A DNA stretch of 64,000 nt from Scenedesmus sp. PABB004 (lineage: Eukaryota). The translations under genes and the position numbers were made by a program. The stretch is from positions 124,001 through 188,000 of the forward strand of contig JABVCE010000013.1 in assembly GCA_014905635.1 (NCBI GenBank). The letters run 5' to 3'. The notes under the pieces were generated by a model. That model saw nothing but the letters and a program-made list of their open reading frames with translations. It made no database searches and was not told the origin of the DNA. Positions 8,133 to 63,014 of the stretch are shown here, piece after piece. The first letter of the stretch is position 1. Each line of letters begins with the position of its first letter.

Positions 8133-9049
8133 TCACGAGAGCTCGTAGCTCCACGCGACGCGCCGGTTCTGCAGGCGCACGCACCAGCTGTTCTCGCCGA
8201 GCTTGAGGAACGGCGTCACGCGCCGCGCGCCGTCCGGCCCCACCACGACGTCCGCGCCCGCCGCGAGCTGCAGGTCCTGCTTGTCTGTCACGTTGAAGCG
8301 CAGCGCCTTGACCCGCACGCTGCCGGTCACGCCCGCGCGCTGCGTCGCCGCGTCGAGCTCGAGCCGCGCCTTGGCGGCGAGCCAGCTGTCCCACACGCCG
8401 CGGCGCCACAGCACCTGCGGCTGCTTGCGCAGCTGCACCGTGTACTTGAGCTGCTCGCCGCTGCTCGCGCTGCTTGCGCCGCTCGCGCTGCCGCCGGCGG
8501 CGCCCGGCGCGCCCGCCGCGCCCGCCGCCTCGTAGCGCACGCCCGGAGCGAGCGTCCAGTCGCGCAGCAGCAGCGCGCCGAGGCCGCCCGGCAGGAAGCG
8601 CTCGGCGTCGATCGGCGGCTCGCCGTCGAGGCGGATGCCGCGCTCCGCCGCGACGATGCGCGCGAGCGTGGGCGTGCCCTGGTGCCACGCCTTCTGCAGC
8701 TGCGCGCTGTGCGCAAACGCGCCGCTCGACGTGTCCAGGCGCGCCTGGCGGTGGCGGGCGCAGCGGCGGCGGCGGCGGCAGGGGCGCGGGTCGGCGGCCG
8801 CCGCCGACCAAAGGCGGCGGCGGGCGGGCGCCGGCCGCCGCGCCGCGCCTTGTATCGGAACTCGACGTTCCTCCTGCTCGTCAGCGTCTGGCGCACGTTG
8901 AGCGCGAGGCGGTCGTCCCAGCACAGCCGCGTGCGCACGCCGCCGAAGAGCGTGGCGCCGCCGCGCGGCCCGAAGTCGCTGCTGGCCTCGCTGCTGGCCT
9001 CCTCGCTCGACGACGACTCGCGCTCCTCCTTGTCCCGCGTGCCGGCCAT
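8133..9049 (-). CDS. OEP21: Chloroplast outer envelope pore protein 21-like beta-barrel
   Basis: Two exons joined by a GC-AG intron (8848-8745). The C-terminus RFNVTDKQDLQLAAG..PFLKLGENSWCVRLQNRRVAWSYEL resembles the recalled plant OEP21 end (FNFQKDQD..PY.QIRENNW..W.VRYDL). Alternating beta-strand pattern. Confidence 0.6.
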
Positions 9050-9399
9050 GGCGCGCGCGGGTGGCGGTGACGCAGGCTTGCCGGCTGCGAGGGCAGCGGC
9101 GGGCGGCAGCAGCGGCGGCTGCTGCTCCTGTCGGCGGCTGCTGTTCGGCGGGTGGGGAGGCGCGACGGGACGGCCGCTGTACAGTGAGCACCTCGTGGCG
9201 GGCGCGCGGGACTGGGGGGCTCTAGACGCGGCGCAGGGGCTCGGAGATGTTACACGCCTCTTGACGCTCCCGCCCCTTGTAGGGCGCACCGCGCGGCCGC
9301 GCGTGCCGTCCACAACGACGACGTCGCCTGTGTCTGTCTCCCGGGCCACTGCTTGGGCGCTGTGGCGGCGCGCGCGCGGGCAGGCGGCGCGAGGCGGCG

Positions 9400-11283
9400 A
9401 TGGAGTGGGCCGACACGGGCCTGGAGGCCCGCATCCTGCGCGCCCTGGCCAAGCAGGGCCTCGCGGAGCCGACGCCGGTGCAGGCCGCCGCCATCCCCGC
9501 CGCCCTGAGCGGCAAGGACATCGTCGCACGCGCGCGCACGGGCAGCGGCAAGACGCTCGCCTACCTGCTGCCCGCCCTGCAGCGCATCGTGGCCGCCAAG
9601 TCCAGCCGGCAGCCCTGGCAGGTGCTGGTGCTGGTGCCGACGCGGGAGCTGTGCGACCAGGTGCGTGCCGGCGATGCGCCCGGCGGCGAGCGGCGGCTGG
9701 CGGCGGCGCCGGCGCCGGCCAGGGGCAGCGGCGAGGCTGCGGGCCCCCGCAGCCGCAGCCCGAGCGCAGCCGCCCACGTGTGCCGCCGCCGCCGCGGGCT
9801 GCCCGCCGCAGGTCGCGGCCGAGGCGCGCGGCGTGGCGGCCCACTGCGGCGCGCCGGTCGCGGTGACGGCGCTGCTCGGCGACACGCCCGTCGCGCAGCG
9901 CGCCGCCGCCGCGTCGGCGGGCGCGCTCGTCGTCGCGACGCCCGCGCGCGTCGCGACGGCGCTGCGCGAGGGCTGGCTCTCCGCGGCCGCGCTCGGCGGC
10001 GCGCTGCAGCTGCTGGTGCTCGATGAGGCCGACCTCCTGCTGAGCTACGGCTACGCGGAGGACCTGCAGGCGCTCGCGGTGCACGTGCCGCGCTCCGCGC
10101 AGGTCCTGCTCATGAGCGCGACGAGCAGCGCCGAGGTGGAGGCGCTGCAGGCGCTCGTGCTGCACAACCCCATCACGCTCAACCTGCTCGCGCCGGGCGG
10201 CGCCGGCGCCGGCGAGCCGGGCGCCGCGGGCGGCGAGCCGGCGGCGGCGGGGCTCGGCGACGGCGGTGCCGGCAGCGCGGCGGAGATCTCGCACTGGCGC
10301 TACGAGTGCGCGCGCGCGGACCGGCGCCTCGCCGTGCTCGCGCTGCTCAAGCTCGGCCTGCTGCGCAAAAAGGCGCGGCGCGGCGCGGCGCGGCGCGGCG
10401 GGTGGCCCCGCGCGCGCGCCCCGCGGCCCGCGGCGGGCGCGGCCCACGTCGTCTGCCGCGGGCCTGCGCAGGTGCTGGTGTTTGCCAACAGCGTGGAGGA
10501 GGGCGTCGGGCTGCGCCTCTTCCTCGAGTCGTTCGGCGTGCGCCTCGGCTGCCTGCACGCGGAGCTGCCGGTCAACAGCCGCAGCCACATCCTGTCCAGC
10601 TTCAACAAGGGGCTCTTCGACTTCCTCATAGCCGTGGGTGAGACGCGCGCAGCTAGCTAGCGCCCGCGCCGCCGCGCCGCAGCCTTTGCCGAGTCGCGGC
10701 AGCCCGGCTCGGCCGGGCCGGGCGGGACCCGGCCCGGCCCGCCGCCGCCGCGCGGACGGGAGGGCGCCCACGCCGCGCCGCGCCGCGCCGCGCCCGCGCG
10801 CAGACGACGTGCACGCGCGCGACCGCGCGGCCGCGGCGGCGTCGGCGGCGGCGGCGGCGGCGGCCGCGCCGGGCGCGCGCGGGCGCAAGCGGCGGCGGCG
10901 CGGCGAGCCCGAGGGCGGCGGCGCCGCGAAGGCGGCGCGGCCGCGCAAGGACGAGGAGTTTGGCGTCACGCGGGGCATCGACTTCAAGGGGGTGCGCAGC
11001 ATCGTCAACTACGACCTGCCCGACAGCGTGCAGGCGCGGCGCGGCGCGGCGCGCGGTCGGCGCAGTGCCACGCGCCGCCAGCGCGTCCACGTGCGAGCGT
11101 GCGTGCGTGTGTGCGTGCGCGTGTGTGGCCAGTGATGATCACTGTTTCAACAAGGCTTAATCTTTGCGTAGGGCCTGCCTAGACACCAGGCCCGCGGACG
11201 AGAACTGACACCCTGAGGCCACGCGCGGACAGGCTTGCCCCCTTCTGCTCTGCCGGCGTTGGGCTGCCGGCGCCTGGCTGACC

Positions 11284-11332
<49 letters not shown>

Positions 11333-12528
11333 AGGGCTACGTGCACCGCGTCGGCCGCACCGGGCGCGCCGGGCAGTCTGGCCTCGCGCTCACCCTGTTC
11401 ACGCCCCAGGACGTCGTCTTTCAGCAGGAGCTGAGCGATGCCCTCGCCGCGCAGCAGGGCACCGCGGCCGCGGCGGCCGCCGGCGCCAGCGGCGGCGGCG
11501 GCAGCAGCGACGACAGCAGCGGCAGCGACACCGACGACGAGGGCGGCGCCGGCGCGCGGCGGCGAGGCGAGGGCGAGGTGCGCGCGCGCGGCGCCGCGCG
11601 GCCCCGCGCGCGCCGCGCGGCCCCGCGCCCGCCGCGATCACGGGCGCGCCCGCCGCGCCCGCGTCCGCGCCCCGTGCCCGCAGCCGCTGCGGCCGTTTGC
11701 GCGGCTCAGCAAGGCGTCGCTCGAGGCGCTGCGCTACCGCGGCGAGGACGTCGGCCGCACCATCACCAAGGCCGCGGTGCGCGAGGCGCGCGCGCGCGAG
11801 CTGCAGCGCGAGCTGCTCAACAGCGAGGCGCTGGCCGGCTACTTTGAGGAGCACGAGGCCGAGCGGGTGCGCGCGGCGGGCGGCCGGGCCGCTGGCGCGC
11901 GGGCCGGCGCGGCGCGGTGCGGCGGGCGCCTCGTTGCGGCGGGGCCGCGCCCGCGAGTCGCGCTGAGCGCGCGCCCGCGCGCGCGCGCGCCGCCGCTGCC
12001 GCCGCCGCCCAGGCGCTGCTGAAGCACGACAAGCCCATGCACCGCAAGGCCGGCAACGCGCCGCACCTGCGCCACGTCCCCGCGTACCTGCGCGACCCCG
12101 CGGCGCTCGCCGCGCCGGCGGCGGCGGCCGCGGGCGCGGCGGCCGCGGCGGCGGCGGCGCGCGCGCCCAAGGCCCCCAAGGCCAAGCGGCCGAAGCGAGC
12201 CGACCCGCTCAAGGCCGCGGCGGGCGGCGCGGGCGCTGCAGGCGCAGCGCCCGCGCCCGCGGCGGCCGCGGCGGCGGCCGGGGGTGCGGGCTTCGTGCGC
12301 GCGCCCAAGCGCGGCGGCGGCGGCGCGGACGAGGAGCTGACCGAGCTGGAGCGCCGCGCGCTCGCGCGGCCGCTCAAGCCGAGCCGCGCCAAGGCGCTCG
12401 CGGGCGTCGGCGGCGCGGCGGCGCGCGCCAAGGCGCTGGGGCCCAAGGTCGCCGCGATGGCGGCCAACAAGCACAACGTGAAGACGGTCCGGCCCAAGAT
12501 GGGCGCCGGCGCCAAGGCGCGGCGCTGA
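9400..12528 (+). CDS. DBP9: DEAD-box RNA helicase DBP9/DDX56 (60S biogenesis)
   Basis: Q motif [54 protein letters not shown]. Family-specific [24 protein letters not shown] and HLRHVPAYL. About 6 introns, two of them GC-AG. Confidence 0.95.
11125..11222 (+). ncRNA. Intronic box C/D snoRNA (18S rRNA guide)
   Basis: Box C GTGATGA 11132-11138 and box D CTGA 11213-11216. Terminal stem GTGGCC/GGCCAC and internal hairpin GGGCCTG/CAGGCCC. GGCTTAATCTTTG (11154-11166) is the reverse complement of conserved 18S 5' sequence CAAAGATTAAGCC. AT-richer island within intron 11034-11334. Confidence 0.85.
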
Positions 12529-19500: not shown

Positions 19501-19522
19501 GGCCAGGTTGCCGGGACCGCTC

Positions 19523-20834: not shown

Positions 20835-21482
20835 ATGTCCAGCCTCTGCCGCCGCGCCTGCCCGCTGCAGCGCCCGGGCGTGCCGTCGGGCGCGCTCTCC
20901 ACGTCTTGCAGTGTCAGGGCGAGCGCAGTGCGGCTCACGCCAGCGGCGGCGCGGCGCGCCGGCAGCAGCGGCAGCAGCAGCGGCGCGCGCCGGCCACAGC
21001 CGCAGCAGCTGGCGTCCGGCGCGGAGCGGCCGCCGGGTGCGCCGCGGGCGGAGCAGCAGCAGCAGCCAGCTCCCGCGCAGGCCCCCAGCGGCGGCGCGCT
21101 CGTGGCGGGCGTGGCGGCGGCGGCGGCCGCGGCGCTCGCGGCGGCGGGCCCCGCGGCCGCGGCGGGGCTTGACGCGCCCGCCGCGGCCGCGCTCGAGTCG
21201 GTGCTGCGCCCGGTGTTCACGCTCTTCACGGTGCTGTACATCGTGCGCATCCCGCTGACCTGGTACCCCTCGATCGACGGCACCAAGCTGCCCTGGCTGC
21301 TCGCGGTCGCGCCGACGGAGCCGTTCCTGCGCGCGACGCGCGCCGTCATCCCCGCCGTCGGCGGCGTCGACGTCACGCCGATCGTGTGGGTGGGCGTGAT
21401 CAGCTTCCTCAACGAGATCCTGCTCGGCCCGCAGGGCATCCTGCTGCTCATCCAGCGCGAGTCGGGCGCGGGCCTGCTCTAG
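20835..21482 (+). CDS. CCB3: YGGT-family thylakoid protein CCB3 (heme ci assembly of cytochrome b6f)
   Basis: Single exon with a transit peptide, then [56 protein letters not shown], which is characteristic of CCB3. Confidence 0.9.
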
Positions 21483-23106: not shown

Positions 23107-26100
23107 ATGGGCCCGCGCGGCGGCGGGCGCGGCGGCTTCAACCGCGGCCCGCAGCTGCCGCGAGGGCTGGCGACGGCGGTCGGCGGCGGCGGCGGCGGCG
23201 GCGGTGCGTGCACGCGTGCGGCGCAGCAGCAGCGGCGGCAGCGGCGGCAGAAGCAGCGGCGGCAGCGGGGGCAGCGGCGGCAGCCCGGGGCAGGCCTGGC
23301 CGCGCGTGTGGCGAGCCCGCGGCTGCTGACGCCGCCACCGCCGCTCACGCCCGCCGCAGGTCGTGGCAGGGGCGGCTTCGGCGGCCGGGGCGGCGGCGGC
23401 GGCGGCCGGGGCCGCGGCGGCCGCGGCGGCGGCGGTGGCGGGCGGCCCGCCAGCCGCAAGGAGCTGCGCAAGGCGGCGCGGCAGGAGAGGAAGCACCACC
23501 GCTTTGAGGCGCAGCAGGCGCACGCGACGGCGCGCCACGCGGCAGCGCAGGGCGGCGCCGGCGCAAAGCGCCCCGCGCAGCAGCAGGACGGTGGCGCCGG
23601 CGGCGGCGAGCCCGCGGCCAAGCGGCAGCGCGCGGAGCAGCCGCCGCTCGCGCAGCAGGGCGCGCCGCCCGCGGCGCGGGCGCCGCGCCCGCAGCCGCAG
23701 CGTGCGCCGCAGCCGGCCGCCGGCGGCGGTGGCGCGGCCGCGCACGGCAGCAGCCGCACCAAGTTTTACGACATGCTCGCCGCCGAGGGCGTGGCGCCGG
23801 CGCCGGGCGGCGGCGCCGCGGGCGCCGCGAGCCAGGCCGCGTTCCTGGCCGACCTGGCGCTGCAGCGCGAGATGGCGCGCAAGCTCAAGGTCAAAAAGGT
23901 GCGCGCCCGGGCGCCTGCACGCGCGCGGGGGGCGCGCTGCGCTGCCCGCCCGCCCGGCCCGCCGCCGCGCGGCGCCCCACGCCGTGCCGCCGCGTTGCCG
24001 TGCCCGCGGCGCAGGGCTCGCAGCGCAGCGGGCCCGAGGACGGGCTGGACGCGCTGCTGGCGGGCATCACCGCGGGCACCAGCCACCTGCCTGCCGGGCT
24101 GGACGGCGCGGCGCAGCCCAGCAGCGGCAGCGACGCCAGCGGCAGCGACGCCAGCGGCAGCGACGCCAGCGGCAGCGGCAGCGAGGGCGGCTGGGGCGAG
24201 GGCGAGTCGTCAGACGGTGGGCTCTCGTCGGACAACGAGGGCGCGGACGGCCTCAGCGGCGGCAGCAGCGACGGCGGCGGCGGGCTGGGCTTTGACTTGG
24301 ACGGCTCGGAGGGCGAGCAGGAGGAGGGCGAGAGCGGGGAGGGGGAGAGTGAGGAGGACGACGGCCTGATGGGCATGCTGGGCGGCGCCTCGTCCGACGA
24401 GCTGGACGCCAGCGGCAGCGGCGACGACGAGGGCGGCAGCGGCAGCGGCGACGGCGAGGGCGGCAGCGGGTCGCTGGAGGAGAGCGACGGCGACGGCGAG
24501 CCGCGGCAGCGGCCGGCCGTGGGCGCCAAGGCTGCCGCGCTCGCGCCGGAGGCCGCGGCAGCCGGCGCCGCCAAGTACGTGCCGCCGGCGCTGCGGCGCG
24601 CCCAGGAGGCGGCGGCCGCGGCCGGCGGCGGCGGGCTCGCGCCGGCGGTGCAGCGCCGCGTTACCGGGCTGCTGAACAGGTGCGGCGCGCCGAGGGCCTG
24701 CGGGGGTGCGGGCCGAGGGCCTGCGGCCCGCGGCGCACGCGCGCCAGCCGCCGCGGCGCCGACGCCGCGTCCGCCTCCGCCGCCGCCGCCGCCGCCGGCG
24801 CCCAGGCTGGCCGAGTCCAACCTCCAGGGCATCGTGGCCGAGCTGCTGGTGCTGTACCAGAGCGAGGGCCGGCGCTGGGTCGGCGACGCGGTGTCCGCGG
24901 GCCTGCTCGCCGCCGTCGCGGAGGGCCCGCGCGCGACGGAGCAGTTTGCCGCGGTCGCGGCCGTCGCGGTCGGCGGCCTCGCGGCCGGCGCGCGCGCGCA
25001 GGACGTGAGCGCGCGCTTCCTCGAGATGCTCGCGGCGCGCCTGGAGCAGGTGTGCTGTGCTGCGCTGTGCGCCGCGCCGGCCGCCCTCCGCCGCCGCGCA
25101 CCGCGCCGGCCGCCCTCCGCCGCGCGCGTGCGCACCGCGCCCGCCGCGCCGCGCCGCGCGTCGAAGGCGTACGCCGCGGGCGACGGCCTGGCGTGCCACA
25201 ACCTGGTCATGCTGCTCGCGTACGCCTTCAGCGCGGGCGTGGTCGCGGCGGACCTCGTGTTCAGGCGCGCGCGCGCCGCGCCGCGCCGCGCCGCGCGGCC
25301 CCGCCGGCCGGCGCCGCGGCGCCGCGCCCCGCGCCCCGCGCCCACGCCCCGCGCCGCGCCCGCGCCGCCGCGCCGCGCAGCGTGCTGGGCGAGCTGACGC
25401 GGCGCTTTGAGGAGGGCGACGTCGCGATGATGCTCACACTGCTCAACGCGGTCGGCCTGCAGCTGCGCGCCACCGACCCCGCCGCGATGAAGGCGCGGCG
25501 CCTTGCCACACTGCTGCGCCTCGCGCCCGGCCGCACGCCCCTGCGGCCCGCGCGTGCGCCCCGCCGCGCCGACGCGCGCGCGCCCGCGGCGCCCGCACGC
25601 CCTGAACCCGGCGCAGGGCTTTGTGCTCGCCGTGCACGCGCGCGCCGCGGCGGCGGGCGGGCGCATGAGCAAGCGCGCGGAGATCATGCTGGAGCTGGTC
25701 ATGGACATAAAGAACAACCGCGCCCGGGAGGCTAAGGCAAAGGCCAAGAAGGGCGCGGCGGCCGGCGGCGGCGGCGGCGGCGGCGCCGCCGCCGCGGGCC
25801 GCGGCGGTGCAGCCGCGGTGCTCCAGCCGCCACTGCTCAAGTGGCTGCGCGGCGCGGGCGTCGCTGACGTGACGCTCGCCAACGTCAGCTGGGCGAAGCT
25901 GCTGCAGCCCGACAAGAAGGGTGCGGCGGCGCGGCGGCGGCGCGCGGGGGGCGGGCGGGCCGCGCGGGCGCCCGCGCGCGGCCGCCCACGCCGCCGCCGC
26001 CGCCGCCGCGCGCGGCGCCGCAGGCATGTGGTGGCACCCGTCCGCCACCGACGCCGCCGCGGGGCTGCTGCCCGGCGTGCTCGCGGAGCACGACGCCGCC

Positions 26101-27342
26101 GGCGCGGCGGCGGCCGCGGCGGCAGCGGCCGCGGCCGACGCGGACGACGACGACGACGGCGGCGGCGCCGGCGCCGGCGCCGGCGCCGGCGGGGGCGCGC
26201 CGGGCGCGGCGCAGCTGCTCGCGCTGGCGGCGGGCATGCGCATGACGACCGACGCGCGGCGCGCCGTGTTTGTCGCGGTCATGGGCAGTGAAGACTGCGC
26301 AGAGGCGGCGGAGAAGCTGCTGCGCCTCCCGCTCAAGGCGCGCCGCCGGCGCCGCGGCGCGGGGCGCGCGGGGCTCGTGGCGCGCTGCGCGTGTGGGGCT
26401 TGCGGAGCGTGCGGGGCGCGCGGGGCGCGGGGCTCCGCGGCTGCGCCGCCGCCGAGCGCCGCCTCGCCGGCGCGTGCGCGGCGCCGCGCAGGGCGACCAG
26501 AGCCGGGAGGTCATGCGCGTGCTGGTCGAGTGCGCGCTGCAGGAGGCGCGGTACAACCCCTACTACGGCCACCTCGCGGCGCGCCTCGCGGCGGTCAGCA
26601 AGGCACACAAGGCGCGCTGCGGCGCCGCGCGGCGCGGCGCCCCGCGCGGCGCGCGCGGGCCCCAGGGCCGGGGCCGCGCGCGCGGCCGCGGGCTGGGAGG
26701 GCTGGGGGCTCGTCGGCTCACCGCAGCCGCCGGCTGCCCGGGCGCTGCCTGCGTGCCCTGCCAGGTGACGCTGCAGTACTGCCTGTGGGACCAGTGGAAG
26801 GAGGTCGGCGCCACCGAGCCGCGCCGCCTGCTCTGCCTCGCGGGCCTCGTCGGCCACGTGCTCGCGGCCTTCACGCTGCCGCTCTCGGCGCTCAAGCCGG
26901 TGCGCGCCCGCGCGCTGTGCTGCCGCGCCGGGCCGTGCCGTGCTGCCGTGCCGCGCGCGCCGCGCGCTCTGCGCATCGCGCCGAGCCCCTGCCGTCGCCG
27001 CGGGCTGCCGCCGGCCGGGCGCCGCAGATCGACTTTGACGCCTGCGCGAGCTGGACGGCCAAGGAGACGTTCCTGTGGCGCCACACGCTGCAGGCGGCGC
27101 TCTCCGGCTTCCGCGCCGACGCCGACGCCGAGGCCGCGTTCGGTCGCCTTGCGTCGCAGGCGCCGCTCGGCGGCCTCAGCCGGGGCCTGGGGCTCTTCCT
27201 GCGCCTCCGCGTGGGGCCCTGGCTCGTCGCGCAGGGCGACGCGGGGCTGCTCGCCCGGCCCGCCGCGGACGCGTGCCTGCGGCGGCTCGCCGCGGCGGAG
27301 AAGACGCTGCTTAGCAGCACCGCCGCCGTGCTCGCCGGGTGA
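23107..27342 (+). CDS. NOM1: Nucleolar MIF4G/MA3 domain protein NOM1/SGD1
   Basis: RGG/basic N-terminus (SRKELRKAARQERK), acidic linker, KYVPPALRR, VTGLLNRLAESN, MTTDARRAVFVAVMGSEDC, EVMRVLVECALQEARYNPYY, VTLQYCLWD. About 11 introns, four GC-AG. Confidence 0.92.
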
Positions 27343-39220: not shown

Positions 39221-42107
39221 TCACTGCAGGTAGGGCAGGCCGTCGCGGTGCTCCGCGACCCACGCGCGCGCCGCCGGGAGCCAGGCCGCCTGCGCCGCGC
39301 CGAGCGCGCTGGCCGGGCGCGCGGTGCGCGCGCACCCCGGCGCGCCGCCGGGCGCCTCGACGCGCAGCGCCGGCAGCACCGCGCCGGCCGCCGCCAGGGG
39401 CTGGCCCGACGCGCCGCGGCCGACCGCCTCGCCAGACTCGGGGAGCACGAGGCGCGCCGTGCCCCACGCCGCCGCCTCGCAGTCGAGCCCCTCCGCGCCG
39501 CCGGCCTCGGCATCGCGCCGCAGCGCCCGGCACGCGCGTAGCCAGACCTGCTCGGGCAGGTGCTGCAACGCCTCGGGCTGCTGCTGCTGCTGCTGCTCTG
39601 GGCCGCCGCCGCCCGCGCCGGCGGCCGCTGCACCCCCGTCGCCCGATGTCGCCGCCGCCGCCGCCAGCGCCCGGCCGGCCGGCCGGCGCCGCCGCCGGCC
39701 GACGTGCCGCTGCGGCGCGCCGGGCGGCAGTAGGGTCACGCCGCTGCGCGGTGCGAGCGCCACGGCCGCGCAGGCGCGCCCAAGGCCCGGCAGCTCCGCC
39801 ACGGGCAGCCCCTGGGCGCGCAGCTCCATCCACTGCAGGAAGCGCACGAGCGGGCAGCCGCGGTGCTCAAACACCAGCGGCGGCGCGGAGGCGTAGCCGC
39901 CGCCGTCGCCCACCCACGTCGCCGGCGGGCCGCGGCAGGCCAGCGCGAGCGGCGCGAGCGCGGCGCGCGGCACGTCGGGCGTGAGCGCGGCCGCCGCGGC
40001 CTTGGACCCGAGGTGGGTGTTGATGAACCAATTCGGCAGCGGGCCCGTCACGACGTCCGCCTGCGGGGGCGGCTGCGCGACGACATCCTCCCATTTGGCA
40101 AACGTGCGGTGGAAGAAGGCGGCCCTCCCCTGCGGCGGCGGCGGCGGCGTCGCCCCAGCGGCGGCCCGCAGGGGCTGCTGCTGCGCGCGCGTGCGCGCGG
40201 CGCGGCGCGGGCCCTGCGCCGCACCAGGTGGTCGTGCTGCAGCATACCCTGGAAGCGCCACGCGCCGCCGGCCCCCGCGCCAAACGCGGCGCCCGGGGGC
40301 GTCGCGACGGCGGCGTAGTCGTGCAGGGAGCGCGCGAGGGCAAAGGCGACGCCAAAGGTGTCCTTGTCCCCGAGCACGTGCCTGCGCAGTTCAGCGGCGG
40401 CGGCGGCTCAGCGGCGGCGGCGGCTCAGCCGCCGGCGCGCGGCCGCCGCGGGCGGGGCGGGGCGGGGCGGAAGGGGGAGGGGGCAGCCCGCGCCGTGCGG
40501 TTGCTCACTTGTAGAGGTCTGAGGAGAAGGTGGTGAGGAACCAGAGCCACTCGAGCGCGGCCGCGTGACGCACGCGGTCCAGCACCAGCTGCCCGCTCTC
40601 TGCCGCACGCGTCACCGGCCCGCCGCCGCCCGCGAGCGCGGCCTGCGCGGCGGCGGCGGCGGCGGCGGGAAGAGGGGAGGGGGGAGGCTCGCGCGGCGGC
40701 TCGCGGCCTCGTGGCTCGTGGCAGCACGGCTCGCGGGGGCGGGCTTCCAGGCGGGCGGGGGCGGCGGCGCCGCTGCCGCCGTGCGCACCCAAAACTGCTT
40801 CTTCTTGATGCCAACCAGCGGATAAAGAGATTCGTGGGGGATGAACGGCGTGGAGGCGAGCTCGGGGCTCCACAGGTCCTTCCTGCAAGCGGGGGAGGAT
40901 GGTCAAGAGACTCGTAGGGGCTGGACGGCGGGGAGCCCGAGCGGCCGGGCGCGGCGGCGTGCCGTGGCGCGCGCGCGCGCGCGCGCGCCACGCGCTGCTG
41001 ACCAGAACATGCTGCCGTGCGTGCGCATGTGGGGCGAGTCGAAGAGGTGGGCGGGGTCGGCGAGGGGCAGGTTGTCCGCATCGAGCAGCAGCACCTGCCC
41101 CCACGCGCGCGCGAGGTCGGCCGCACGTCGGCCGGCCGCCGCCGCCGCCGCCGCCGTGGCGCGCGCTCACGCGCGCGGCCGTCAGCGGCCGCCGTTGGGC
41201 CGCGCCGCGCCGCGCCGCGCCTGCTGGAAGCGCGTGTGATAGAGGGCGAAGACCTTGGGCTCGTAGCGGTCCAGGTGCACGTCGCTGCGCGCGGCACACA
41301 GGGGGGGGGGGTGTAGGGGCCGCGCGGCGCAGCGCGCCGCGGGGGCGGGCAGTGGCGGCGGCGGCGCGCGGCGCCTGCCGCCGTCCCCGCCGCTCCCCCT
41401 CGCGCCGGCGCTCACGCCTTGTGGTGCGCGGGGTGCGGCTGGGCGCTGAGGTCGAGCCAGGCCAGCGGCGGGAAGGCCCGACTGAGCGTGGCGCGCGTCG
41501 CGCCGTCCACCTCGGCCTCGCCCTGGTGCGCGACCTCGACGGGCAGCGAGCAGTTGTGCTGGCGGCGCAGCACCTGGCGGGCGCGTCGCGTGGCGACCAG
41601 TTGTGCTGGCGGCGCAGCGAGTGGCGGGGGGCGCAGCAGGGCGCGTCGCGCGCTGCCGCCGCCGCCGCCGCGCGGCCGCGCGCGCGCGCGCGCTCACGTG
41701 GAGCATGATGGCGAGCTGCCCGATGTGGTGGCGCTTGCCGGCAGAGATGAGGATGCCGCGCCGGGGCAGCGCGCGCAGCGCCGCCAGCCGCGCGTCGCGC
41801 CCCGCGCCGGCGAGGAACTGCGCCACCTGCTGCGCCTGGGCCGCCATGCCCCGGTGGCCCGGTGCGCCGGCCATGTAATCCTCTGGCAGCCCGGGCGGCC
41901 GCGGGCACCAGCCCGGCAGCGGGCAGCGCCGGAGCGCGGCGCGCACGTTGCTCTGCTGCTCTGGCGCGCCCCCGGCGGCGGCGAGGAGCGCCAGGCAGCA
42001 GCAGGCCGCCTGCGGCGCGGTCAGGACGGCAGCTCAGATCGATCCCGTGCGCGTTGCTGTGCGCGGGGGCGCGCGTGACGCACCAGCGCGGCGGCGCCAC
42101 GCGGCAT
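39221..42107 (-). CDS. GT71 (MNN1/MNN2-like) alpha-mannosyltransferase
   Basis: Signal anchor MPRGAAAL-AACCCLALLAA; RGILISAG, SLPVEV, KVFALYHTRFQQ-VLLLDADN..DPAHLFDS, ESGQLVLDR, LGDKDTF motifs typical of the family. TGTAA 39167-39163. Confidence 0.85.
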
Positions 42108-45850: not shown

Positions 45851-53835
<7,985 letters not shown>

Positions 53836-54180: not shown

Positions 54181-57100
54181 TCACGCCGCCGGCCGCGGCG
54201 CGCCGCCGCCCTCCGCCACCGCGACCGCCGCCTCGACCACGCCCACGCCGCCCGGCTGCGCGTGCGCCTGCGGCAGCGGTAGCGACGGCAGCCCCGCGAG
54301 CGCCGCCGCCGCGGCCGCCGCCTGCTGCTGCGCCGCGCGCGCCGGGTTGACCGCGGGGCTGAGCATCGCGGGGCTAAGGTTGGGCGACACCTTGTGCGCG
54401 ACGTGCCACGTGTGCTGCCACAGGTTGTGCTGCGAGTCGCTCCACCCCGGGTGCAGCACGCCCTGCGGCGCCGCGGGCGGGTCGGCGCGCGCGCGGGGCC
54501 GGCCGCAACCCCTGCGGCCCACGCCGCCCAGCAGGCGGCGCGGGGATGCCTGGCCGCCCAGGCAGGCGCTGATTGCAGGTGCAGCGCGCACCATGTCGTG
54601 CAGCATGATCAGCAGGTTCTGCAGCGCCGCCGCCGCCGCCTCGCCCGCGACCTCGCTGCCGCCGCCCGCGGCCGCCTGCAGCGCGCCGAGCACCGCCGTC
54701 CAGAGGCCCGCGAAGCCCGGCTGGCTCGCGAGCGACGGCAGGTGCAGCAGCATGGCCTTGCTCACCACGCGCACCAGCTCGCTCACGGTCACGTCCGCCT
54801 GCACCGGCGGCGGCGGCGGCGGCGGGCGCGCGGGCGTCGGGCGCGGCCCGCCCACGGCTCACCCGCCGCTGCTGTCGCCGCGTGCGCGCCGCCGCCGCCG
54901 CTGGCGCACCTGGGGCATGTCGCGCGCGGCCTTGCCGGTCATGCGTCTGCTGAGCGCCTCGATCGGCGGCAGCAGCCGCTCGCGCAGGCCGCGCTCGATG
55001 CTGCCCGGCAGCACGCCCAGCGCCTCGGCCGACACCGCCGCCTGCTGCAGCATGGCCGTGGCCGCGCTGCGCACCTGCGCGGCGGGCGCCGGCGCCGGCG
55101 GGCGCCGGTCCGCCGGTCAGCCGCCGCGTCCGCCGCGCCGCGCACGTCGCTCCCCCGCGCGCCACACGCGCTCGCCCGCCGCCGGTGCTCGCCCCATGCC
55201 CCCGCTGCTCGCCCCCCGCGCGCGCGCCTGCAGGTCTGGGTGCTCCGCGAGGCGCGCCAGCATCTCCACCAGGTACAGCCAGAACTCGCTCTTGGCGTTG
55301 CTGAACGTGAGGAGCTGCTCACGCGACAGCCCCGCGCCCGCGAGGCTCGCCGCCCAGCCCTCCAGCCACGCCGTGAGGCGCGACAGCAGCGACAGCGTGC
55401 GCTCCTGCGGCGACGCCGGCGGCGGGCGGCGCGCTCGGGTCGGTCGGGCGGGCGCGGCGGCGGCCGGCGGGCGCTCGCCGCCGGCGGCGCGGCGGCGCGC
55501 GGCGGCCCAGCGGCGCGCGGCGGCGGCGCACCTTGAGCTTGGGGTGCTCCAGCGCGGCGCGCTCGATGAACCACACGCTCGCCTCAAGCGCGAGCACGTA
55601 GTTCAGCGGCGTCAGGCTGTGCACCACGACCCAGCGCAGCGCCTCGAGCGACACCTGGCGGCGCCCCGCGGGCCGCGGCGGCGGCGTCAGCGGCGCCGCC
55701 GACGGCGGCTGCTGGCAAACAGCGCGGGCGCGGGCGCGGGCGCGCACCGGGAAGGCCTCGGGCCGCACGCTGGTCATCTTGATCAGGTTGCACGCCGACG
55801 CCCACGCCCACTGCGCCTTGACGTGCGGCGACGCGACCTGCGCGCGGCGGCACGCGGCCGGCGGCGGCGGCGGCGGCGGTCTGCGGCCGGCGCGGCGCGG
55901 CGCAGCACAGCGCGGCACAGCGCAGCGCAGCGCAGCGCAGCGGCGCCGGGGCCCGCGCCGCCGGGGCCTGCGCCGCTGGGGCCTGCGCGCCGGCTGCGGG
56001 GCGCGCCTGGACGAGCGCGAGCATCTCTGCCGCGATGACCTCGGCGTTGAGCCAGGCGACCTCCGGGTCGAGGCTGGGGACGAGCTGCAGCCCGCGCAGC
56101 AGCGGCTCCGCGGCCTCGGGCTTGCACGGCAGCAGGCGCTGGCACAGGCGCAGCAGCCCCACCGCGCCCGCGGCCACGAGCGCGCCGTCCACGCCCTTGC
56201 CGCGGATGATCGCGGACAGGTGGTCCAGCACGGGCGGCCACAGCAGCGACAGGCGGTCGCGGTTGCGCAGCAGCACCACCTGCGACGGCGGCCCCGCGGC
56301 ACCGCAACGTCAGCGGGCGGCGCGCGGCGCGCGGCGCGCTCCGGCCCCAGCTCCCGCCGCGTGGCGCGCGGCGCGCGCACCAGCAGCAGGTCCAGGCACA
56401 GCTCGGCGGCCTCCCAGTCCACCGCGGCGGGCGCGCCCCTGCGCGGCGGCGGACGTGAGGTGGGACGGGGCGGCGGCCGGGCGCAGCGCGGGTCGCGCCC
56501 TGCGCGCTGCGCGTGCGCACCGGTCGCCGTGCCCCCGGTGCGCGGCCTCACGCTCGGGCGTGCCGCCGCCGCCGTGCCCGTGGCCGGCGCCCGCGGGCAG
56601 CGGCCGCGGCAGCGGCCCCGGCGCGGCGATGATGGCCGCGACGAGCGCCTGCGGCCGCGGCGGCGCGGCAGGTCAAGCTCAACTCGAGCAGAGGGGCGCG
56701 GCCGCGCAGGGCCGCCGCGCGGGCGCGTGGCGCGCGCGCGCGCGCACGCGCGCACGCACGCACGCACGCACGCACGCACCTGCAGCGCCTCCTGCTTGAG
56801 GAAGCGGCTGTCCGCAAAGACCTCCTGGATGGCGCAGCGCACGTGCAGCGTCTCCAGCGCAGCGGCCTCCATGTCGCGCTCGGCCTGTGGCCGCGGCGGG
56901 CGCGGTGGCGGCGGCGTTGGCGCGCGAGCGCGGGGCCTGCGCTCGCGCCGCCGGGCGGCGCCCCGCCCGCCCGCACCTGCGTCGCGGCCTTGGCCTCGTA
57001 CTCTGGCTCCTGCAGCGCGATCAGCTGCGTCACGCTGCGCAGGAAGCCGCCGCCGCCGGCGCCACCACCGCGCCGGCTCGCGCCCGCGGCCGCGCGCCGC

Positions 57101-60100
57101 TGCCGCGCCGTGCGCAGCGGCCGGCCGACCGCGCCGGGGCCGGGCGACGGCGGCGCGCCGCCGCCCGGCCCCCGCCCGCGGCGGCGGCGGCGGCCCCGCC
57201 ATTGGCGGCCGCGCCGGCTGCGCCTGCAGCCGCGCCGCCGCTACCGGGCGGGGCGCCGCCCGCGCTGCCGGGCGGCGCGGGCACGCCCCAGACGTCCGTG
57301 TCCAGCAGCGCCTCGAGCGCCGGCGGCAGCAGGTCCAGGCGGTCGAGGCGCAGCACAAGGTCCAGCACGTTGGCCCAGCTGCTGCGCACGCAGTCGCCGT
57401 ACCTGCAGCGGCGGCGGCGGCGGCGGCGGCGTGTGGGGCGCGCGCGGCGCGGGCGCCCGGCGCGGCGCGCGGCTCGGCGCTGGGCGGCGCCGCGCGCGGA
57501 GGGACGGCGCGGCCCGCCCCGCCGCGGCGCCCCCCGCACCGCGTGGCGATGATGCACAGCGTCTCCAGCGCGGCGCGCGCCTTGGCGTCGCGCCCAAACG
57601 CGACGCGCGGCTTGGGCACGCCCGGGTGCAGCGCGGCGCCAAACTTGGCGAGCAGCAGCACCGCCGAGTCGGCCACGCCCTCGACGTCGTAGTGCGCCGC
57701 CAGCCTGTGTGCGCGGCGCGGCGCGGCGCGGCACAGGGCCTCAGCGCCTCGCAGCGCCGCGCCGCGTCGCAGCGCAGCGCACAGCGCGCGGGGCCCACGG
57801 CAGCGGCGAGCCGCGCCGCGCCGCGCACCGCGTCGCCGTGCGCAGGCCCTCGAGCGCGGCGCGCGCCACGGCGTCGCTGTCCGCGTGCTCCAGCACCACG
57901 CCCATCGCGTGCACCGCCTGGCCCCAGACGAGGCGGAACATCATGGTGTCAAAGCAGTGACGCACTGCGCGTGTGTGGGGGTGGTGGTGGTGGTGGGGGG
58001 TGGTGGGGGGTGGGGGGGGGGAGGGCGTCGTCGTGTGGCAGGCCGCGCACGGTCAGCGCCGCCGACCGACCACCGCCGGCCGAGCAAGGCGCGCGGCGCG
58101 CCGGGGGCCGGGGCCCCGCCGAGCCCCCTCTCCCCCGCGCCGCGCGGCGCGCACCCGCGGGCGGCAGCACCAGCGCCGCGCCGCGCGGCGTCGCGCTGCG
58201 CTCGGCCATGATCGCCCAGCTCGCGGCCGAGGCGGGGCCGGCCACCGCGGGCGCGCCGGTGGTGTCGCTCATGCGCAGCGGCGCTGCGCGCCAGGCGCGG
58301 CGGCGGGCGGGCGCGGCGGTCGGGCGTGGCGGCGCGGGCGTGGGCAAAGGCGCGGGCGCGGCGTGCCGGCCAGCAGCCCCGCGCCGCAGGGCCGCGCAGC
58401 GCGCACAGCGCGGCGCGCGGCGCACCGCTGCAGATGCTGTGATAGATGGCCGACAGGAAGGGGCGCGGGAAGTCCTCGCCCGCGTTGACGCCGCGCAGGT
58501 TGCGGCAGAACTCGGCCTCCTCCATCTTCTTCTTGACCTGTGATGACACGCCGCACGGGGCGGCGCGGCGCGGCGCGCGGGGCCGCGCGTGAGCGCGAGC
58601 GAGTGCGCGCGATGGGGCCGGTGGGTCAACGGCAGACCCCGCCCCGCGCCCCGCCCAGGCGTCCGCCGCGCCCCTGCCGCGCGCCCCCGCCGCGCGCCCC
58701 TGCCGCGCGCCCGCGCCCGCGTGCGCGCCTGGCTGTTGTGGCGGTCTGTGTTGAGCATGATGACGCTGTAGGCGAGCACGTACGCGGCGTCCTCGTTCGC
58801 AAAGACCTGCGGCGCGTGGCCGTAGTACGCGCGGCCAAAGGTGTTGATGATGCGGTCGATCTTCTGCGCCTCGCCGGGCAGCTTGAACGACTCCAGGTAC
58901 GTGCGCAGCCCCGCGTCAAAGGAGAGGCCGCCAAAGTCAAACGTCGACGTGAACGCGTCGAGCACCTGCGCCGCGCCGCGGCGGCGAGGGCGCCGGGGCT
59001 CTGTGCGCGCACGCGGCGCGCGCGGGGGGCGCAGGGGGGCTGCGGCGGCGGGAGCTGGATGCGGCGGCCTGCGGGGCGGCGCGCCTTGAGGAAGAACTGG
59101 TCTGGCTCGCCGAGCAGCTCGCCGATGGTGGTCTTGTTGAGGCCCGGGCACACGCGCAGGAAGTGGCCGATCGCCAGCGCCAGCTCGTCCTCGCTCACGC
59201 CCGCCTCGCTGCACACCAGGCGGCGGTGCATGCTGCTTGGCGGCGGCGGCGGCGACGGCGCGCCGCCGCCGTTGGCGGCGGCGGCCGGCTCCGGCTCGGG
59301 CGTGCGCAGCTCCGGGAGCAGCTTGTTGGCCTGCGGCGGCGGCGGCGTCCGGGCGGCAGCTCGGCCGCCAGCGGCGCCGCGCCGCGCCGCGCCGTGCGCG
59401 TGCGGCCGCCCCGCCGCTCCCCCTCTCGCGCCTGCAGGAACTGGAAGCCCTTCTTGTAGTCCCGGTTGAACGTCTCCACCGCCAGCAGCACGCGCTGCTT
59501 CAGGCCCTTCTCAAACGCGGCCACCTCGGCCGCCGACGCCGCGGCGGGCCCGGTCGGCGTCGCCCAGCCGGCGGCGCCCGCCCCGGCGGCGGCGGGCGCG
59601 CCGCCGCCGCCCGCGCGGTCGGCGCGGCTGCCGGGGCCCGCGCTCAGGCGGCGCGCGTGCGGCGAGGGCGCGGCGCCGCGGGCCGCCTCCGCGTCGGCCG
59701 CCGCCGCCGCCGCGAGCGCGGCCGCCGACGCGGGCGCGCCGCCGAGGATCTGGTCGAGCGGCGGGCTATCGCCCCGGCACACGGGGCCCCACACGTCGAT
59801 GTAGCGCCCCGGGCAGCTCATGGGCTGCAGCTGCGGCGGGGGGTCGTCCAGCCTGCGGCGCGCGGGCGCGGGCGCGGCGCGGCGCGGCAGGTCGCGCGCC
59901 CGCCACAACCGCGCGTCCGCGCGGCGCCGCGTGCGTGCAGGCGCTGCCGGCGCGGGCGCCGCCGCCGCCGCCGCCGCGGCCGCGCCGCTCACCGCTCCGC
60001 GAGCGCGCCCAGCAGCGCGAGCAGCGCATCGAGGCTGATCAGGTGCATCGGCCCCAGGCCCTGCCGGCTGCCGCCGCCGCCCGGGAACGCGGTCCTGCTG

Positions 60101-63014
60101 AGCAGGCCGGCCACGTCCTCAAACAGGTTGCTGCGCCGGCAGAGGCGGCAGAGCAGCAGCAGTGAAGCAGGCACGGTGGGCGGCGCGGGCGCTGCGAGCT
60201 GCGGGTGCCGGTGGCCTCGGGGCGGCCGCGCCCAGGAGGCCCGCCGCGCCGCGCCCGGCGGCGGGGCCGCCGCGGGCGCCGCACCTGCGCTCGAGGCGGC
60301 AGTCGCAGGACAGGAACGCTGCGTGCAGGAAGCCCGGGCAGCGCGCGAGGTCTAGCAGCCCCTCCAGCGCCGCCTCCTGCTGCTCGGGGCTGGCCGTGTC
60401 CTTGCCTGCGGGCGCGGCGGCGGGGGCGGCGGGCTCGGCGGGCGCGGCAGCGGCGCCGCCGCCACGCCCTGCCCGCGCAGCTGCCGCCGCCGCCGGCTGG
60501 CGGCGCCGCCTGCTGCTGCCGGCCGAGCGGGCCCCCTCACCGCCGGCGAGGCGCAGCAGCACGCACTGCAGCACCGCCTCGATCTGCATCATGGCCACCG
60601 GGCCCAGCACCTGCCACACCGCCAGCAGCACCTGGCACACGCCGGCAATCACGCCCAGCGACGCCGCCTGCGCCTGCAGGGCGGCGCCGGCGGCGCGGCA
60701 GCGGCAGCGTCGGGGGCGGCGCCGGCGGGGCAGCGCGCGCGCAGGCGCCGGCAGCGGGCGCGCGCCGCACCGCCGCCGACATCGCCGCAAAGAGGTCGCG
60801 CTGCAGCAGGCCCAGCAGCGCCTCGTGCCCCGCGAGCGCCGCGCCGCCGGCGAGCACCGCGCGGTGCACCATGGCCAGGCCAAACATGGCGTACTCGTCG
60901 TCGCCGCCGCCGCCGTCGGCGTCGGCGCGCCGCTGGCCGACGCAGTCGATTAGGAACGACAGCACCTCCACCGCGCACGGCAGGCCGTGCCCGTAGCGCG
61001 GCGCGCCGCCGGAGACGCGCAGCGGCGGCGGCAACGGCTCGGCGACCCCGCCCGAAGCGAACGGCGCGCCGGGGTCGGCGCAGCCGCGCGCGCCGGGGGC
61101 GCTCGACCGCGCGCCGCCGACCGAGCCGTCGGCGGCGAGGGAGGCGAGGTCGCCCGGGTGCACGCTGCTGCTGTCAAACGTCGCGCACGCGTCGCTGCTG
61201 GTGTCGTTGTCGTGGTGGTGCCCGGTCGCGCCCACCGTCTCGCTCAGCTGCCGGCTGAGCGCCGCCGCGCTCGCACCGCCGGATGAGGCGTTGGCCGCCG
61301 CCGCCGCTGCGGCCGCCGCCACCGCCGCCGCGCCGCCGGGCGAGCGCGGCTCCGGCCCAGCGGCGGCGGGCGCCGCCGGCGCCGCTGCCGGCGCCGCCGG
61401 GACGCCCCCGGCCGCCGTGCCGCCATCCGCGCCTGCTGCGGCCTCCGCCTCCACCGCTGCCGCCGCCGCCGCGGCCGCCTCCGCCGCGGCCGCCTCTGCC
61501 GCCGCCGCCTCGGCCGCCGCCGCCGCCTTGGCCGCGGCCGCCTCGGCCGCCGCCGCGGCGACGACGCTGCTGATGTGCGGCAGCACGCCGCCCGCGGCCG
61601 CGGCCTCGTCGGCGGCGGGGCTGCCCGGCTCCAGCTCCTGCAGGCGGCCGAAGACCAGGCCGGTGATCTCGCCCATGATCTGCCGGCTGTAGTGCGTGAG
61701 AAGCTCCGAGACCTCGCGCGCGCTGCGCGCGCTGCGCAGGTCTGCGGCCGTGGGCGGCGGGCGCGCGGGGTCGGCGGGCGGCGGGCGGGCGGGCGGCGCC
61801 GCGTCGGGCGGGCGCCCCGCGCGCCGGCGCCGGCGCGCGCCGTGCGCTGGGCGGTGTGCCGCACCCGCGTCGAGGTTCCCCAGCATGAACGCCGCCTGGT
61901 AGGCCTTGCACACCGACTCGTCGCTCAGGTACGCGCCCGCCTCGCACCGCACGACCGCCTGCAGCACCTGCGCGGCGCGGCGGCGCCGCACCGCGCCGCG
62001 CCGCATCGCGCGCCGCGCCGCGCGCCGCGCTCGCTGGCCGCGCCGCGCGGCCGGCGCAGCGCTGGCCGCCGCGGTCGCTGCCGCGCCTGCAGTATGTTGA
62101 AGAGCACCACCTCGTCGCTCGCGGGGCTGGTGGCCTCAAACTTGCACTGCGTCGTGCTCTGCACGATCGCGTTCACCGCCTCCGCCGCGCCGACCGCGCG
62201 CACGTCTGCGGCGCGGCGCCGCGGCGCGCCCCGTCGGCGGCCGCCGGCGCAGCAGAGGCGCCCCCGGTCCCCCGCGCGCAGCCGCGCGCTCACCGAGCAC
62301 GCCGCTGCTGAGCAGGCGCCACAGCGCGGTGAGCGCCACGCCCGTGATGGGCCCGCTGACCTCCGGCTCCCGCACCAGCTTGAGGAAGGGCGCCAGGAAC
62401 TCCAGCGGCTGCACCTCGGACCAGTCTGCGGCGGCAGCCCGCGCGCAGCGGTTGGCCCCAGCCGCTCCCGCACGGGCTGCGGCGCCGCGCGCCCGCGCGC
62501 CGGTCCCTGTGCCACGCCGCCGCCACGCCCGGTCCTGCGCTGCCGCGGCCCTGCGGCGGCCCCGGCTGCGGCGGCCGCGCGGCGGCGCCCGCCCGCCCGG
62601 GCGCTGCTGCGCCGCCGCTGCTCACCGCCCCAGTCGAAAATCTTGCGCCGCAGGGCCCGGAAGTCCTCGTAGTGCGGCTCGGGCTCCATCTGGTCCTCCT
62701 CCTGCGCAGGCGGCGCGGGGAGGGCTCGCCAACCGCAGCGCCCGGGCCAGGCGCGCCCCGAACGGCCCGCCCCGGGCGCGTGCGTCCGTGCGGCCGGGCC
62801 GTCCCGCGCCGGCCGCGTCCCAGGCGCGCCGCAGCGCGGGCGGGGGCGGCGCTGGCGGGGCGGGGCGCGCGGGGGTTGGGGGGATGCCCCCGCCATCGCT
62901 GCTCACGTTGTACTTGCCCGGCACCACCGCCCACTTGGCGTTCTGGCGCATGGCCGTGATGACCGCCGAGATCTCGGCGTCCAGCTGCAGCGCCAGACGG
63001 TTGCATGGCTCCAT
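54181..63014 (-). CDS. GNOM: GNOM/GBF1-type ARF guanine-nucleotide exchange factor
   Basis: AEISAVITAMRQNAKW, PFLKLVREPEVSGPITGVAL, CKFEATSPASDEVVL (DCB), CDCRLERSNLFED (HUS), Sec7 core LESFKLPGEAQKIDRI..LAYSVIMLNTD, VLLRNRDRLSLLWP. More than 20 introns. Confidence 0.95.

Follow-up and report, generated by a model that had tools for sequence, protein, structure and literature searches.

Can GC serve as a routine donor (5' splice site) dinucleotide in a green alga and, if so, which introns are able to use it? The question is raised by the window analyzed here, a stretch of 64,000 bases (79.4% G+C, no N) from Scenedesmus sp. PABB004 (contig JABVCE010000013.1, positions 124,001 to 188,000 of the forward strand), for which a reading made without database searches (the sequence-only reading) had proposed at least 24 introns with a GC donor in eight genes, against a share of about 1% in most plants. 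The latter figure is in line with the share of approximately 1.2% reported for 121 plant species (PMC6310983), and the window lies far above it. Unless stated otherwise, all counts given below refer to the window. Each of the 24 proposed introns starts with GC and ends with AG on its strand (22 open with GCGCG and two with GCACG), and each is directly preceded by an exon ending in AG. The presence of GC-AG introns in the window is confirmed and, judged by the sequence and by comparison, the 24 introns appear to be real users of GC donors, distributed over eight of roughly 14 genes. With a probability of roughly 85%, we take them to be ordinary U2-type GC-AG introns that have been made common by G+C pressure.

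The composition of the window is extreme. Third codon positions are 96.4% G+C, and so few stop codons occur (155-175 in each frame over 64 kb) that all six frames contain long open stretches. Searches with tblastn run through in-frame introns here, and "shadow" genes on the antisense strand obtain coding scores. The dinucleotide GC outnumbers all others (27,617 sites, as compared with 4,389 for GT, counting both strands).

Homologous proteins place 17 GC-AG junctions

Full-length relatives were gathered for four genes using single conserved exons as queries: CCT2 (120 relatives listed, including transcriptome-derived, plant, animal and fungal proteins), the MA3-repeat protein PDCD4/MRF (n = 64), NOM1 (n = 10, three of them full length) and GNOM/GBF1, queried with its Sec7 exon (150 listed). 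For spliced alignment, a protein-to-genome aligner was written that has intron states and no splice-site model. Against the CCT2 homolog P0012, it returned ten introns, eight with GT and two with GC donors, the GC pair lying at 47446..47748 and 47908..48125. When only GT donors were allowed, the score fell from 2144 to 2026, with one GC intron read through and the other swapped for a GT site 51 nt downstream. GT-only alignment lost 117-367 units in all ten gene/homolog runs, including 222-299 units with each of four homologs for GNOM, and the GC introns were either read through or replaced by GT substitutes, which lengthen or shorten the reading frame by 2 to 24 codons. The check by protein-to-genome alignment that had been suggested for CCT2 and GNOM/GBF1 hence recovered the GC introns at the expense of the GT-only models, and the expectation that GT-AG predictors would mis-model genes was borne out in every gene tested, all of which were damaged by GT-only modeling.

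Donor dinucleotides were also swapped, and GC yielded the largest gain of 15 extra dinucleotides in all six spliced-alignment runs. Because any site near a true border permits removal of the intron, this control is weak, and the runners-up (CG, CC and AA) recovered much of the gain. The aligner, having no site model, moreover places spurious GC introns where GNOM is poorly conserved. Given the weakness of the dinucleotide control, it was replaced by a dinucleotide-blind junction scan, in which every in-frame, stop-free combination of donor and acceptor within ±30 nt was considered, whatever its dinucleotides (~1,240 pairs per intron), and the joined peptide was scored against 3-8 homologs. The scan covered the 63 introns (33 GT and 30 GC) proposed by the aligner in CCT2, PDCD4/MRF, NOM1 and GNOM. 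Rank 10 or better was reached by 32 of the 33 GT introns, which provide the positive control, and by 17 of the 30 GC introns, which are exactly the 17 that the sequence-only reading had placed in these genes; the 13 others ranked between 26 and 594 and were discarded. Fourteen of the 17 rank first and the remaining three second, fourth and sixth, outranked only by pairs in which both borders are moved equally by 1-5 nt. Pairs that tie for the top score also differ by moving the two borders equally, which leaves the peptide identical, and among them the AG acceptor is found only in the proposed pair. The possibility that splicing occurs at nearby GT donors, named beforehand as a potential refutation, was examined for the same 17 introns: eight have no alternative in-frame, stop-free GT-AG pair within ±30 nt, and at the other nine the best such pair costs 63-337 score units. 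The homolog panels against which these 17 junctions came out best or nearly so include transcriptome-derived proteins.

Four of these introns belong to the NOM1-like gene (MIF4G and MA3 domains) on the forward strand. The first, at 25265..25380 (116 nt, phase 2), ranks 1 of 1239, with a best GT-AG alternative of 152 versus 215. The second and third, at 25493..25616 (124 nt, phase 0) and 26338..26491 (154 nt, phase 0), both rank 1 of 1241 and have no GT-AG alternative within ±30 nt; the exon 3' of the latter matches positions 33-65 of the MA3 profile, and the exon before it gave no useful Pfam match. The fourth, at 26612..26764 (153 nt, phase 0), is in-frame and free of stops and ranks 1 of 1238 (best GT-AG alternative 266 versus 376). 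Five introns lie in the PDCD4/MRF-like gene with its MA3 repeats, also on the forward strand. The intron at 32192..32327 (136 nt, phase 2) ranks 1 of 1234 (best GT-AG alternative 597 versus 781), and that at 32437..32600 (164 nt, phase 0, donor GCACGC) ranks 2 of 1219, one unit under the pair with both borders moved by 1 nt (best GT-AG alternative 476 versus 701). The second GCACG donor (GCACGG) opens the intron at 33453..33664 (212 nt, phase 0), which ranks 1 of 1230 and has no GT-AG alternative. The last two, at 34699..34932 (234 nt) and 35939..36085 (147 nt), are both phase 0, in-frame and stop-free, and both rank 1 of 1240, with best GT-AG alternatives of 612 versus 843 and 485 versus 822, respectively; reading through the latter with tblastn requires a long gap.

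The two CCT2 introns (forward strand, both phase 0) are of 303 nt at 47446..47748, where the pair ranks 1 of 1238, has no GT-AG alternative and joins homologous residues that continue free of gaps, and of 218 nt at 47908..48125, which ranks 1 of 1236 (best GT-AG alternative 840 versus 1139). Both contain microsatellite-like arrays, CT-rich in the former (~212 nt, 47490-47701) and CA-rich in the latter (~75 nt, 48006-48080); these are the only A/T-bearing simple repeats that were noticed, the introns being otherwise made up of G+C only.

The six introns of the GNOM/GBF1-like gene are all phase 0 and lie on the reverse strand. Two of them, at 55075..55227 (153 nt) and 55838..56006 (169 nt), are those at ranks 4 and 6 of 1241. 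The former is outranked only by equal border shifts, has no GT-AG alternative, contains one in-frame stop and was recovered with three of four homologs, the fourth taking a GC donor 6 nt away; the latter has equal shifts of 2-3 nt scoring above it, a best GT-AG alternative of 284 versus 349, and was recovered with all four. The three introns associated with the Sec7 domain all rank first and have no GT-AG alternative: 58538..58728 (191 nt, rank 1 of 1241) and 58966..59084 (119 nt, rank 1 of 1239), both inside the domain and found with four of four homologs, and 59331..59431 (101 nt, rank 1 of 1219), at the start of the domain and found with three of four. In the N-terminal region, the intron at 61968..62086 (119 nt) ranks 1 of 1238 (best GT-AG alternative 381 versus 549), with the same donor chosen with all four homologs and the same acceptor with three of them.

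Seven further introns supported by domain continuity and coding statistics

The seven introns in genes for which no homolog panel was available were evaluated by combining coding and site scores over every G[TC]-AG pair within ±90 nt, using a donor matrix trained on GT introns only and genes that lie outside the training set. At all seven, the proposed pair is the best of all these pairs, and six of the seven are further backed by continuity of a Pfam profile, leucine-rich repeat (LRR) register, frame changes or in-frame stops.

In the gene labeled OEP21, the intron at 8745..8848 (reverse strand, 104 nt, phase 0) follows an exon ending in aag, runs from GCGCGG to CCAG and joins two strongly coding exons that are in different frames; it scores 81.6, as compared with 52.6 for the best GT pair, and was recovered by the ab initio parse described below. 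The label itself found no support, since this gene (8136-9049, reverse strand) has no Pfam match at E-values of up to 10, despite its strong coding statistics, and no Atlas neighbor above 0.84 (a lead only). The label DBP9 stood in part: Pfam supports a DEAD-box helicase, and does not extend to DBP9 identity. The first GC-AG intron of this helicase gene, at 10373..10471 (forward strand, 99 nt, phase 0), also follows aag, begins with GCGCGG, and scores 103.0 versus 73.2 for the best GT pair. It too was recovered by the parse, and the exon on its 3' side begins at position 18 of Helicase_C; the exon before it gave no useful Pfam match. This intron is in-frame and stop-free, so that the frame alone does not decide against retention. 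The second, at 11034..11334 (forward strand, 301 nt, phase 0, GCGCGG), contains four stops and shifts the frame when read through. The exons around it match positions 76-96 and 99-110 of Helicase_C, leaving exactly two residues in between, and the profile therefore continues across the junction without a gap. A GT site 6 nt upstream (GTGCAG, 11028) would remove two profile positions and scores 94.8, 13.7 bits below the 108.5 of the GC pair.

The GT71 mannosyltransferase-like gene holds a phase 0 intron of 126 nt at 41095..41220 (reverse strand), with two in-frame stops inside. The exon 3' of it matches Mannosyl_trans3 positions 96-126 from its first residue, and the pair scores 46.6 versus 22.3 for the best GT pair; the 22-residue exon upstream has no Pfam profile match of its own, and the ab initio parse picked a different structure here. 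In the F-box/LRR gene (forward strand), the intron at 53118..53226 (109 nt, phase 0) scores 58.2 versus 18.0 for the best GT pair and shifts the frame when read through, and the LRR register is preserved across its junction, the unit having L at position 0 and LP at positions 17-18. The junction of the intron at 53431..53535 (105 nt, phase 0; in-frame and stop-free; 62.2 versus 20.5 for the best GT pair) falls inside an exact 24-residue LRR unit, with the next unit beginning 24 residues on. The probable GC-AG intron at 51954..52029 of the same gene (76 nt, phase 1) is the one case in which the proposal held only in part. An intron is required there because the F-box-like exon (profile positions 7-33, E = 2e-4, below the Pfam curated cut-off) does not share a frame with the LRR exon; the exact donor is uncertain. 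The six best candidates all use GC, and the coding score upstream is low: the proposed pair scores 30.0, as compared with 27.4 and 25.1 for GC donors located 27 and 39 nt upstream, respectively, and 12.6 for the best GT pair. The remaining gene labels of the sequence-only reading, namely CCT2, GNOM/GBF1 (Sec7), PDCD4/MRF (MA3), NOM1 (MIF4G and MA3), GT71 (Mannosyl_trans3) and F-box/LRR, were upheld.

A GT site 6 nt from a GC site is seen once more, in GNOM, where GTGAGC at 62293 and GCGCGG at 62287 (reverse strand) precede one acceptor and the GT site is slightly better against the homologs (318 versus 309). Together with 11028/11034 in the helicase gene, this GT/GC pair may represent tandem alternative donors.

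GC donors follow a stricter context rule than GT donors

Context statistics were computed on a robust set comprising the 17 GC and 32 GT donors of the four genes with homolog panels. GC donors in the window follow a simple rule, with AG at the end of the exon and GC[G/A]CG at the start of the intron. Position -2 is A in 17 of 17 GC donors and in 10 of 32 GT donors (P = 1.6e-6); G at -1 is nearly universal in both classes (17/17 and 31/32). After an exon ending in AG there are 17 GC and 9 GT donors, and in all other contexts none and 23 (P = 5e-7). Likewise, C at +4 is found in 17/17 GC versus 22/32 GT donors (P = 0.009), and phase 0 in 15/17 versus 16/32 (P = 0.012). The remaining donor positions are shared, with G at +1, +3 and +5 in 32, 32 and 31 of the 32 GT donors and in 17, 15 and 17 of the 17 GC donors. 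A at +4 occurs in 7 of the 32 GT donors, and GCGAG was never seen among verified GC donors. Scored with a matrix trained on GT donors, GC donors (2.1-7.8 bits) and GT donors (2.6-7.8 bits) span similar ranges; acceptor scores overlap, and intron lengths are 101-303 nt (median 153) for GC and 93-269 nt (median 137) for GT introns. Within the context AG followed by G?GCG, where the question mark denotes position +2, GC outnumbers GT by 15 to 6 in the robust set and by 24 to 9 among motif instances located at a coding switch (see below). The share of C in this context is about 72%, a little short of C/(C+T) in intron interiors, which is 86%.

The phase bias is connected with codon usage. The frequency of A is 1.3% at third and 23% at second codon positions, and because A is nearly absent from third positions, an AG exon end is practically confined to phase 0, with a Lys, Gln or Glu codon, and to phase 2, which explains why GC introns cluster in these phases; all 15 phase 0 GC introns come after a K, Q or E codon. 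The sequence-only reading had concluded that this alga has a relaxed 5' splice-site code. This part of it did not hold, given that the GC donors are tighter than the GT donors in A at -2, C at +4 and phase 0. The pattern is that of the compensation known for GC 5' splice sites, compensatory signals having been described at human GC 5' splice sites (PMC3167603), and the rule is therefore conditional rather than loose.

The same CCT2 introns carry GT donors in relatives of lower G+C content

Metagenome contigs were scanned with the CCT2 exon flanked by the two GC introns, which yielded 80 loci, all of which were aligned to P0012. Many of them are intronless. One group of loci matches the first six intron positions of CCT2 in the window (27, 49, 87, 130, 211 and 264), with local G+C content of 49-52% in GT loci and 60-61% in GC loci. 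At position 211, the donor is GT in L019, L042, L045, L049, L051, L055, L056, L058, L067, L074 and L077 and GC in L021, L022, L025 and the window; at position 264, it is GT in L042, L045, L049, L051, L055, L058 and L077 and GC in L021, L022, L037 and the window, several of these loci being near-duplicates of one organism from different assemblies. The junction scan was applied to three loci, in which GC introns make up 4 of 12 (L021), 2 of 6 (L037) and 1 of 10 (L077), all at rank 1; all seven of these verified GC donors have C at +4. This comparison shows that the two CCT2 introns are old and that in the G+C-richer lineages their donors have gone from T to C, and it reveals GC donors at these positions in assemblies independent of this one. 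Further downstream, the intron positions of CCT2 (46181-49881) diverge, with 309, 365, 431 and 505 in the window as compared with 329, 380, 420/421, 456 and 501 in L021, L045 and L077, which suggests that introns were lost and gained, or slid, in the 3' half of the gene.

Frequency of GC-AG introns and chance controls

Given the abundance of the GC dinucleotide, chance expectations were assessed in two ways. In the first, motif instances were examined for a switch from coding to non-coding sequence, which was found at 24 of 89 AGGCGCG sites and 9 of 31 AGGTGCG sites, as compared with 1 of 25 AGGGGCG and 1 of 16 AGGAGCG sites (AGGCGCG versus the two controls, Fisher P = 0.004). In the second, an ab initio parse allowing GT and GC donors, with a length cap, strand competition and priors, was run on the window and returned, at their exact borders, 43 of the 49 introns in the robust set and 22 of the 24 proposed GC introns. 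Its calls were filtered strictly, by requiring that both flanking exons score at least 10 bits and the donor at least 5 bits in the donor matrix, and other dinucleotides were put in for GC with equal prior as controls. With GC, 25 strict introns were kept; with GG, CG, CC, GA, CA, TG and AG, the numbers kept were 0, 6, 7, 2, 3, 1 and 4, respectively. The total parse gain was 1,801 bits for GC and at most 1,057 for the control dinucleotides. One GC call of the parse, 32865-32949, was rejected; it contradicts a homology-supported GT intron (32790-32949), and ab initio GC calls that lack the preceding AG are therefore unreliable.

Of the 49 introns in the robust set from the four genes, 17 are GC introns (35%), or 17 of 63 (27%) if all 14 unplaced positions are counted as GT. 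Window-wide, the strict filter leaves approximately 25 GC introns, as compared with 74 GT introns whose flanks are good, and a GT-only parse contains 117 introns in all. The earlier estimate of about one in five of some 110-120 introns agrees with this parse and with the filtered counts, and the share of GC-AG introns in the window can be put, roughly, at one in four or five. Additional GC-AG candidates that were absent from the original proposal emerged from the parse or the motif scan, at 61307-61432 (reverse strand), 37568-37728 (reverse), 28976-29239 (forward), 18217-18342 (forward) and 19853-19957 (reverse), together with a donor near 43645 (forward). The first two show GCGCG after an exon-final AG, and 61307-61432 lies in a low-complexity part of GNOM.

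Why GC donors are common

If the introns are ordinary U2-type introns, G+C pressure, in the form of mutation bias or biased gene conversion, would drive donor position +2 from T to C, and the change would be tolerated only at a site that is otherwise of full strength, with the exon ending in AG and G or A, C and G at +3 to +5. In this full-strength context C would be the commoner state, elsewhere T would be kept, and the codon bias, with almost no A at third positions, would decide which introns can switch. Removal from RNA would take place at these exact sites, presumably by the major spliceosome, with mutation or biased gene conversion as the putative driver.

Several observations weigh against this account. 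Removal at the exact sites is read from comparison with homologous proteins and from coding statistics, and six of the 24 introns are in-frame and free of stops, which leaves retention compatible with the frame. The C at +2 was read from one assembly of this organism. For NOM1, the panel consists of three predicted proteins of related algae, which may have modeling errors in common. The codon and acceptor models were trained on the four homology-checked genes, and the parse merges neighboring genes and overcalls GC donors (89 raw calls); hence the window-wide rate is rough, and only filtered or comparative counts were used. The invariant C at +4 is not predicted by pairing to the canonical 5' end of U1. 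Finally, one of the GC donors in L021 comes after cgg instead of AG, and the context rule is not absolute across lineages.

The invariance of +4 bears on a second explanation, in which it is the spliceosome that has adapted in this lineage, with the U1 5' end (or the U5/U6 contacts) pairing with G-Y-G-C-G so that GC is fully canonical. Such an adaptation, which we regard as unlikely, would account for the unusual GT consensus of the window, GTGCG, with C at +4 in 22 of 32 donors, for the C present at +4 in all 17 GC donors of the window and all 7 in L021, L037 and L077, and for the 15 to 6 excess of GC over GT in the strong context. The strict AG at -2/-1, however, resembles compensation for a mismatch at +2, of which a matching U1 would have no need, and GTGCG-type donors are also common in Chlamydomonas, where U1 is canonical. 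It thus seems improbable that donor position +2 is in effect Y, read by a U1 5' end or by U5/U6 contacts that have co-evolved with genomic G+C; were this the case, GCGCG after an exon-final AG would be a second canonical donor and not a tolerated mutant. The adapted spliceosome could nevertheless be compatible with GC donors made common by G+C pressure.

It is very unlikely that the GC-AG introns are an artefact of modeling, in which the true junctions lie nearby, or the segments are kept as lineage-specific insertions, and the borders reflect the mere abundance of GC. This dinucleotide is indeed the commonest of all, low-complexity insertions are numerous in the proteins of G+C-rich algae, the site-blind aligner proposed 13 extra GC introns that failed the junction scan, and the six in-frame, stop-free introns could in principle be such insertions. 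Yet the other 18 of the 24 cannot be read through, and the coding score inside the introns is -0.35 to -1.34 bits per codon. The proposed pairs, moreover, are the best or nearly the best of ~1,240 junctions in a scan that ignores dinucleotides, and GG, CG and CC, which are of similar abundance, keep 0-7 strict introns as opposed to the 25 of GC. One precise motif is common to all 24. Sequence error, with T turned into C at real GT donors during assembly or polishing, has the extreme G+C content in its favor, which is hard on sequencing chemistry, and is scarcely credible, given that errors at one signal position in 24 places are implausible, that GC occurs at the same CCT2 positions in separate assemblies of other organisms (L021, L022, L025 and L037), and that the context of the GC donors is unlike that of the GT donors (A at -2 in 17/17 versus 10/32), which contradicts miscalled GT sites.

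A different class of intron, the U12 type, has a 5' site of the RTATCCTT type (PMC2846911) and was rejected as a candidate, all 24 introns beginning with GCGCG or GCACG. A search of the window with Rfam gave no matches at gathering scores, and no small nuclear RNA gene was found in it.

Relation to known GC donors

The closest precedent encountered is the haptophyte Emiliania huxleyi (65% G+C), in which GC donors make up 56% of 241 manually mapped junctions, with an overall GC/GT ratio of about 60/40; its authors attribute the GC donors to G+C content and found that GT-based models mispredicted genes (PMC4028052). A rule requiring exons that end in AG was not seen in the accessible part of that report (PMC4028052). 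In plants, the splicing of GC-AG introns is carried out by the major spliceosome, exchange between GT and GC is frequent at homologous positions, and genome G+C has a weak positive correlation with splice-site G+C (PMC7072748). E. huxleyi has in common with the window that it is a G+C-rich alga, that a large share of its donors are GC and that the acceptor stays AG. Unlike the window, it belongs to another supergroup, GC is the majority there and about a quarter to a third here, and its G+C content is far lower than the 79% seen here. The GC-AG introns of plants and animals share with those of the window their termini, a site that otherwise follows the GT consensus of the organism with other donor positions strengthened, and positions held in common with GT introns of relatives; the frequency in the window is some 20 to 30 times higher. 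Mammalian GC donors read GCAAG, and those of the window GCGCG. Dinoflagellates, in which GC and GA donors are common, likewise represent an algal lineage with widespread non-GT donors, but they use GA as well and have other peculiarities of expression, whereas in the window GC alone stands out and GA is at chance level. No report of a high GC-AG rate in green algae was found in the literature searched, which excluded subscription journals and the supplements of genome papers. The kind of intron is known, and the green-algal case is new as far as our searches reach.

The most useful contribution made here is the conditional rule, together with its connection to codon bias. GT-only gene models of this organism would be wrong in a large share of genes, and predictors and spliced aligners need to accept GC donors under the context rule (AG at the exon end, and GCG or ACG after the initial GC). 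GC donors admitted freely are badly overcalled, 13 of 30 site-blind GC proposals having been wrong or unplaceable. If G+C pressure is the cause, the window offers a clean example of base composition reshaping a core signal only where redundancy allows it, and the series from GT to GC at identical CCT2 positions across rising G+C makes this account testable.

Neighboring genes and repeats

Several other features of the window were noted in passing. A ubiquitin-family gene identified with Pfam, split by a GT intron, lies at 50936-51471 (reverse strand), between CCT2 and the F-box gene. Pfam searches of predicted exons also identified a DNL zinc-finger gene at 19523-20143 (reverse strand), a YGGT-family gene at 20967-21482 (forward strand) and a Rad21/Rec8-like cohesin gene at 28085-31111 (forward strand). 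Approximately 80 tandem copies of GGGCG occupy 2409-2805, on the strand opposite to an LRR_6 gene (roughly 1949-5240, reverse strand), and nested repeats of 21, 73 and 115 bp are found in intergenic sequence at 7237-7520, with a unit that has the palindromic core CCGAAATTTCGG.

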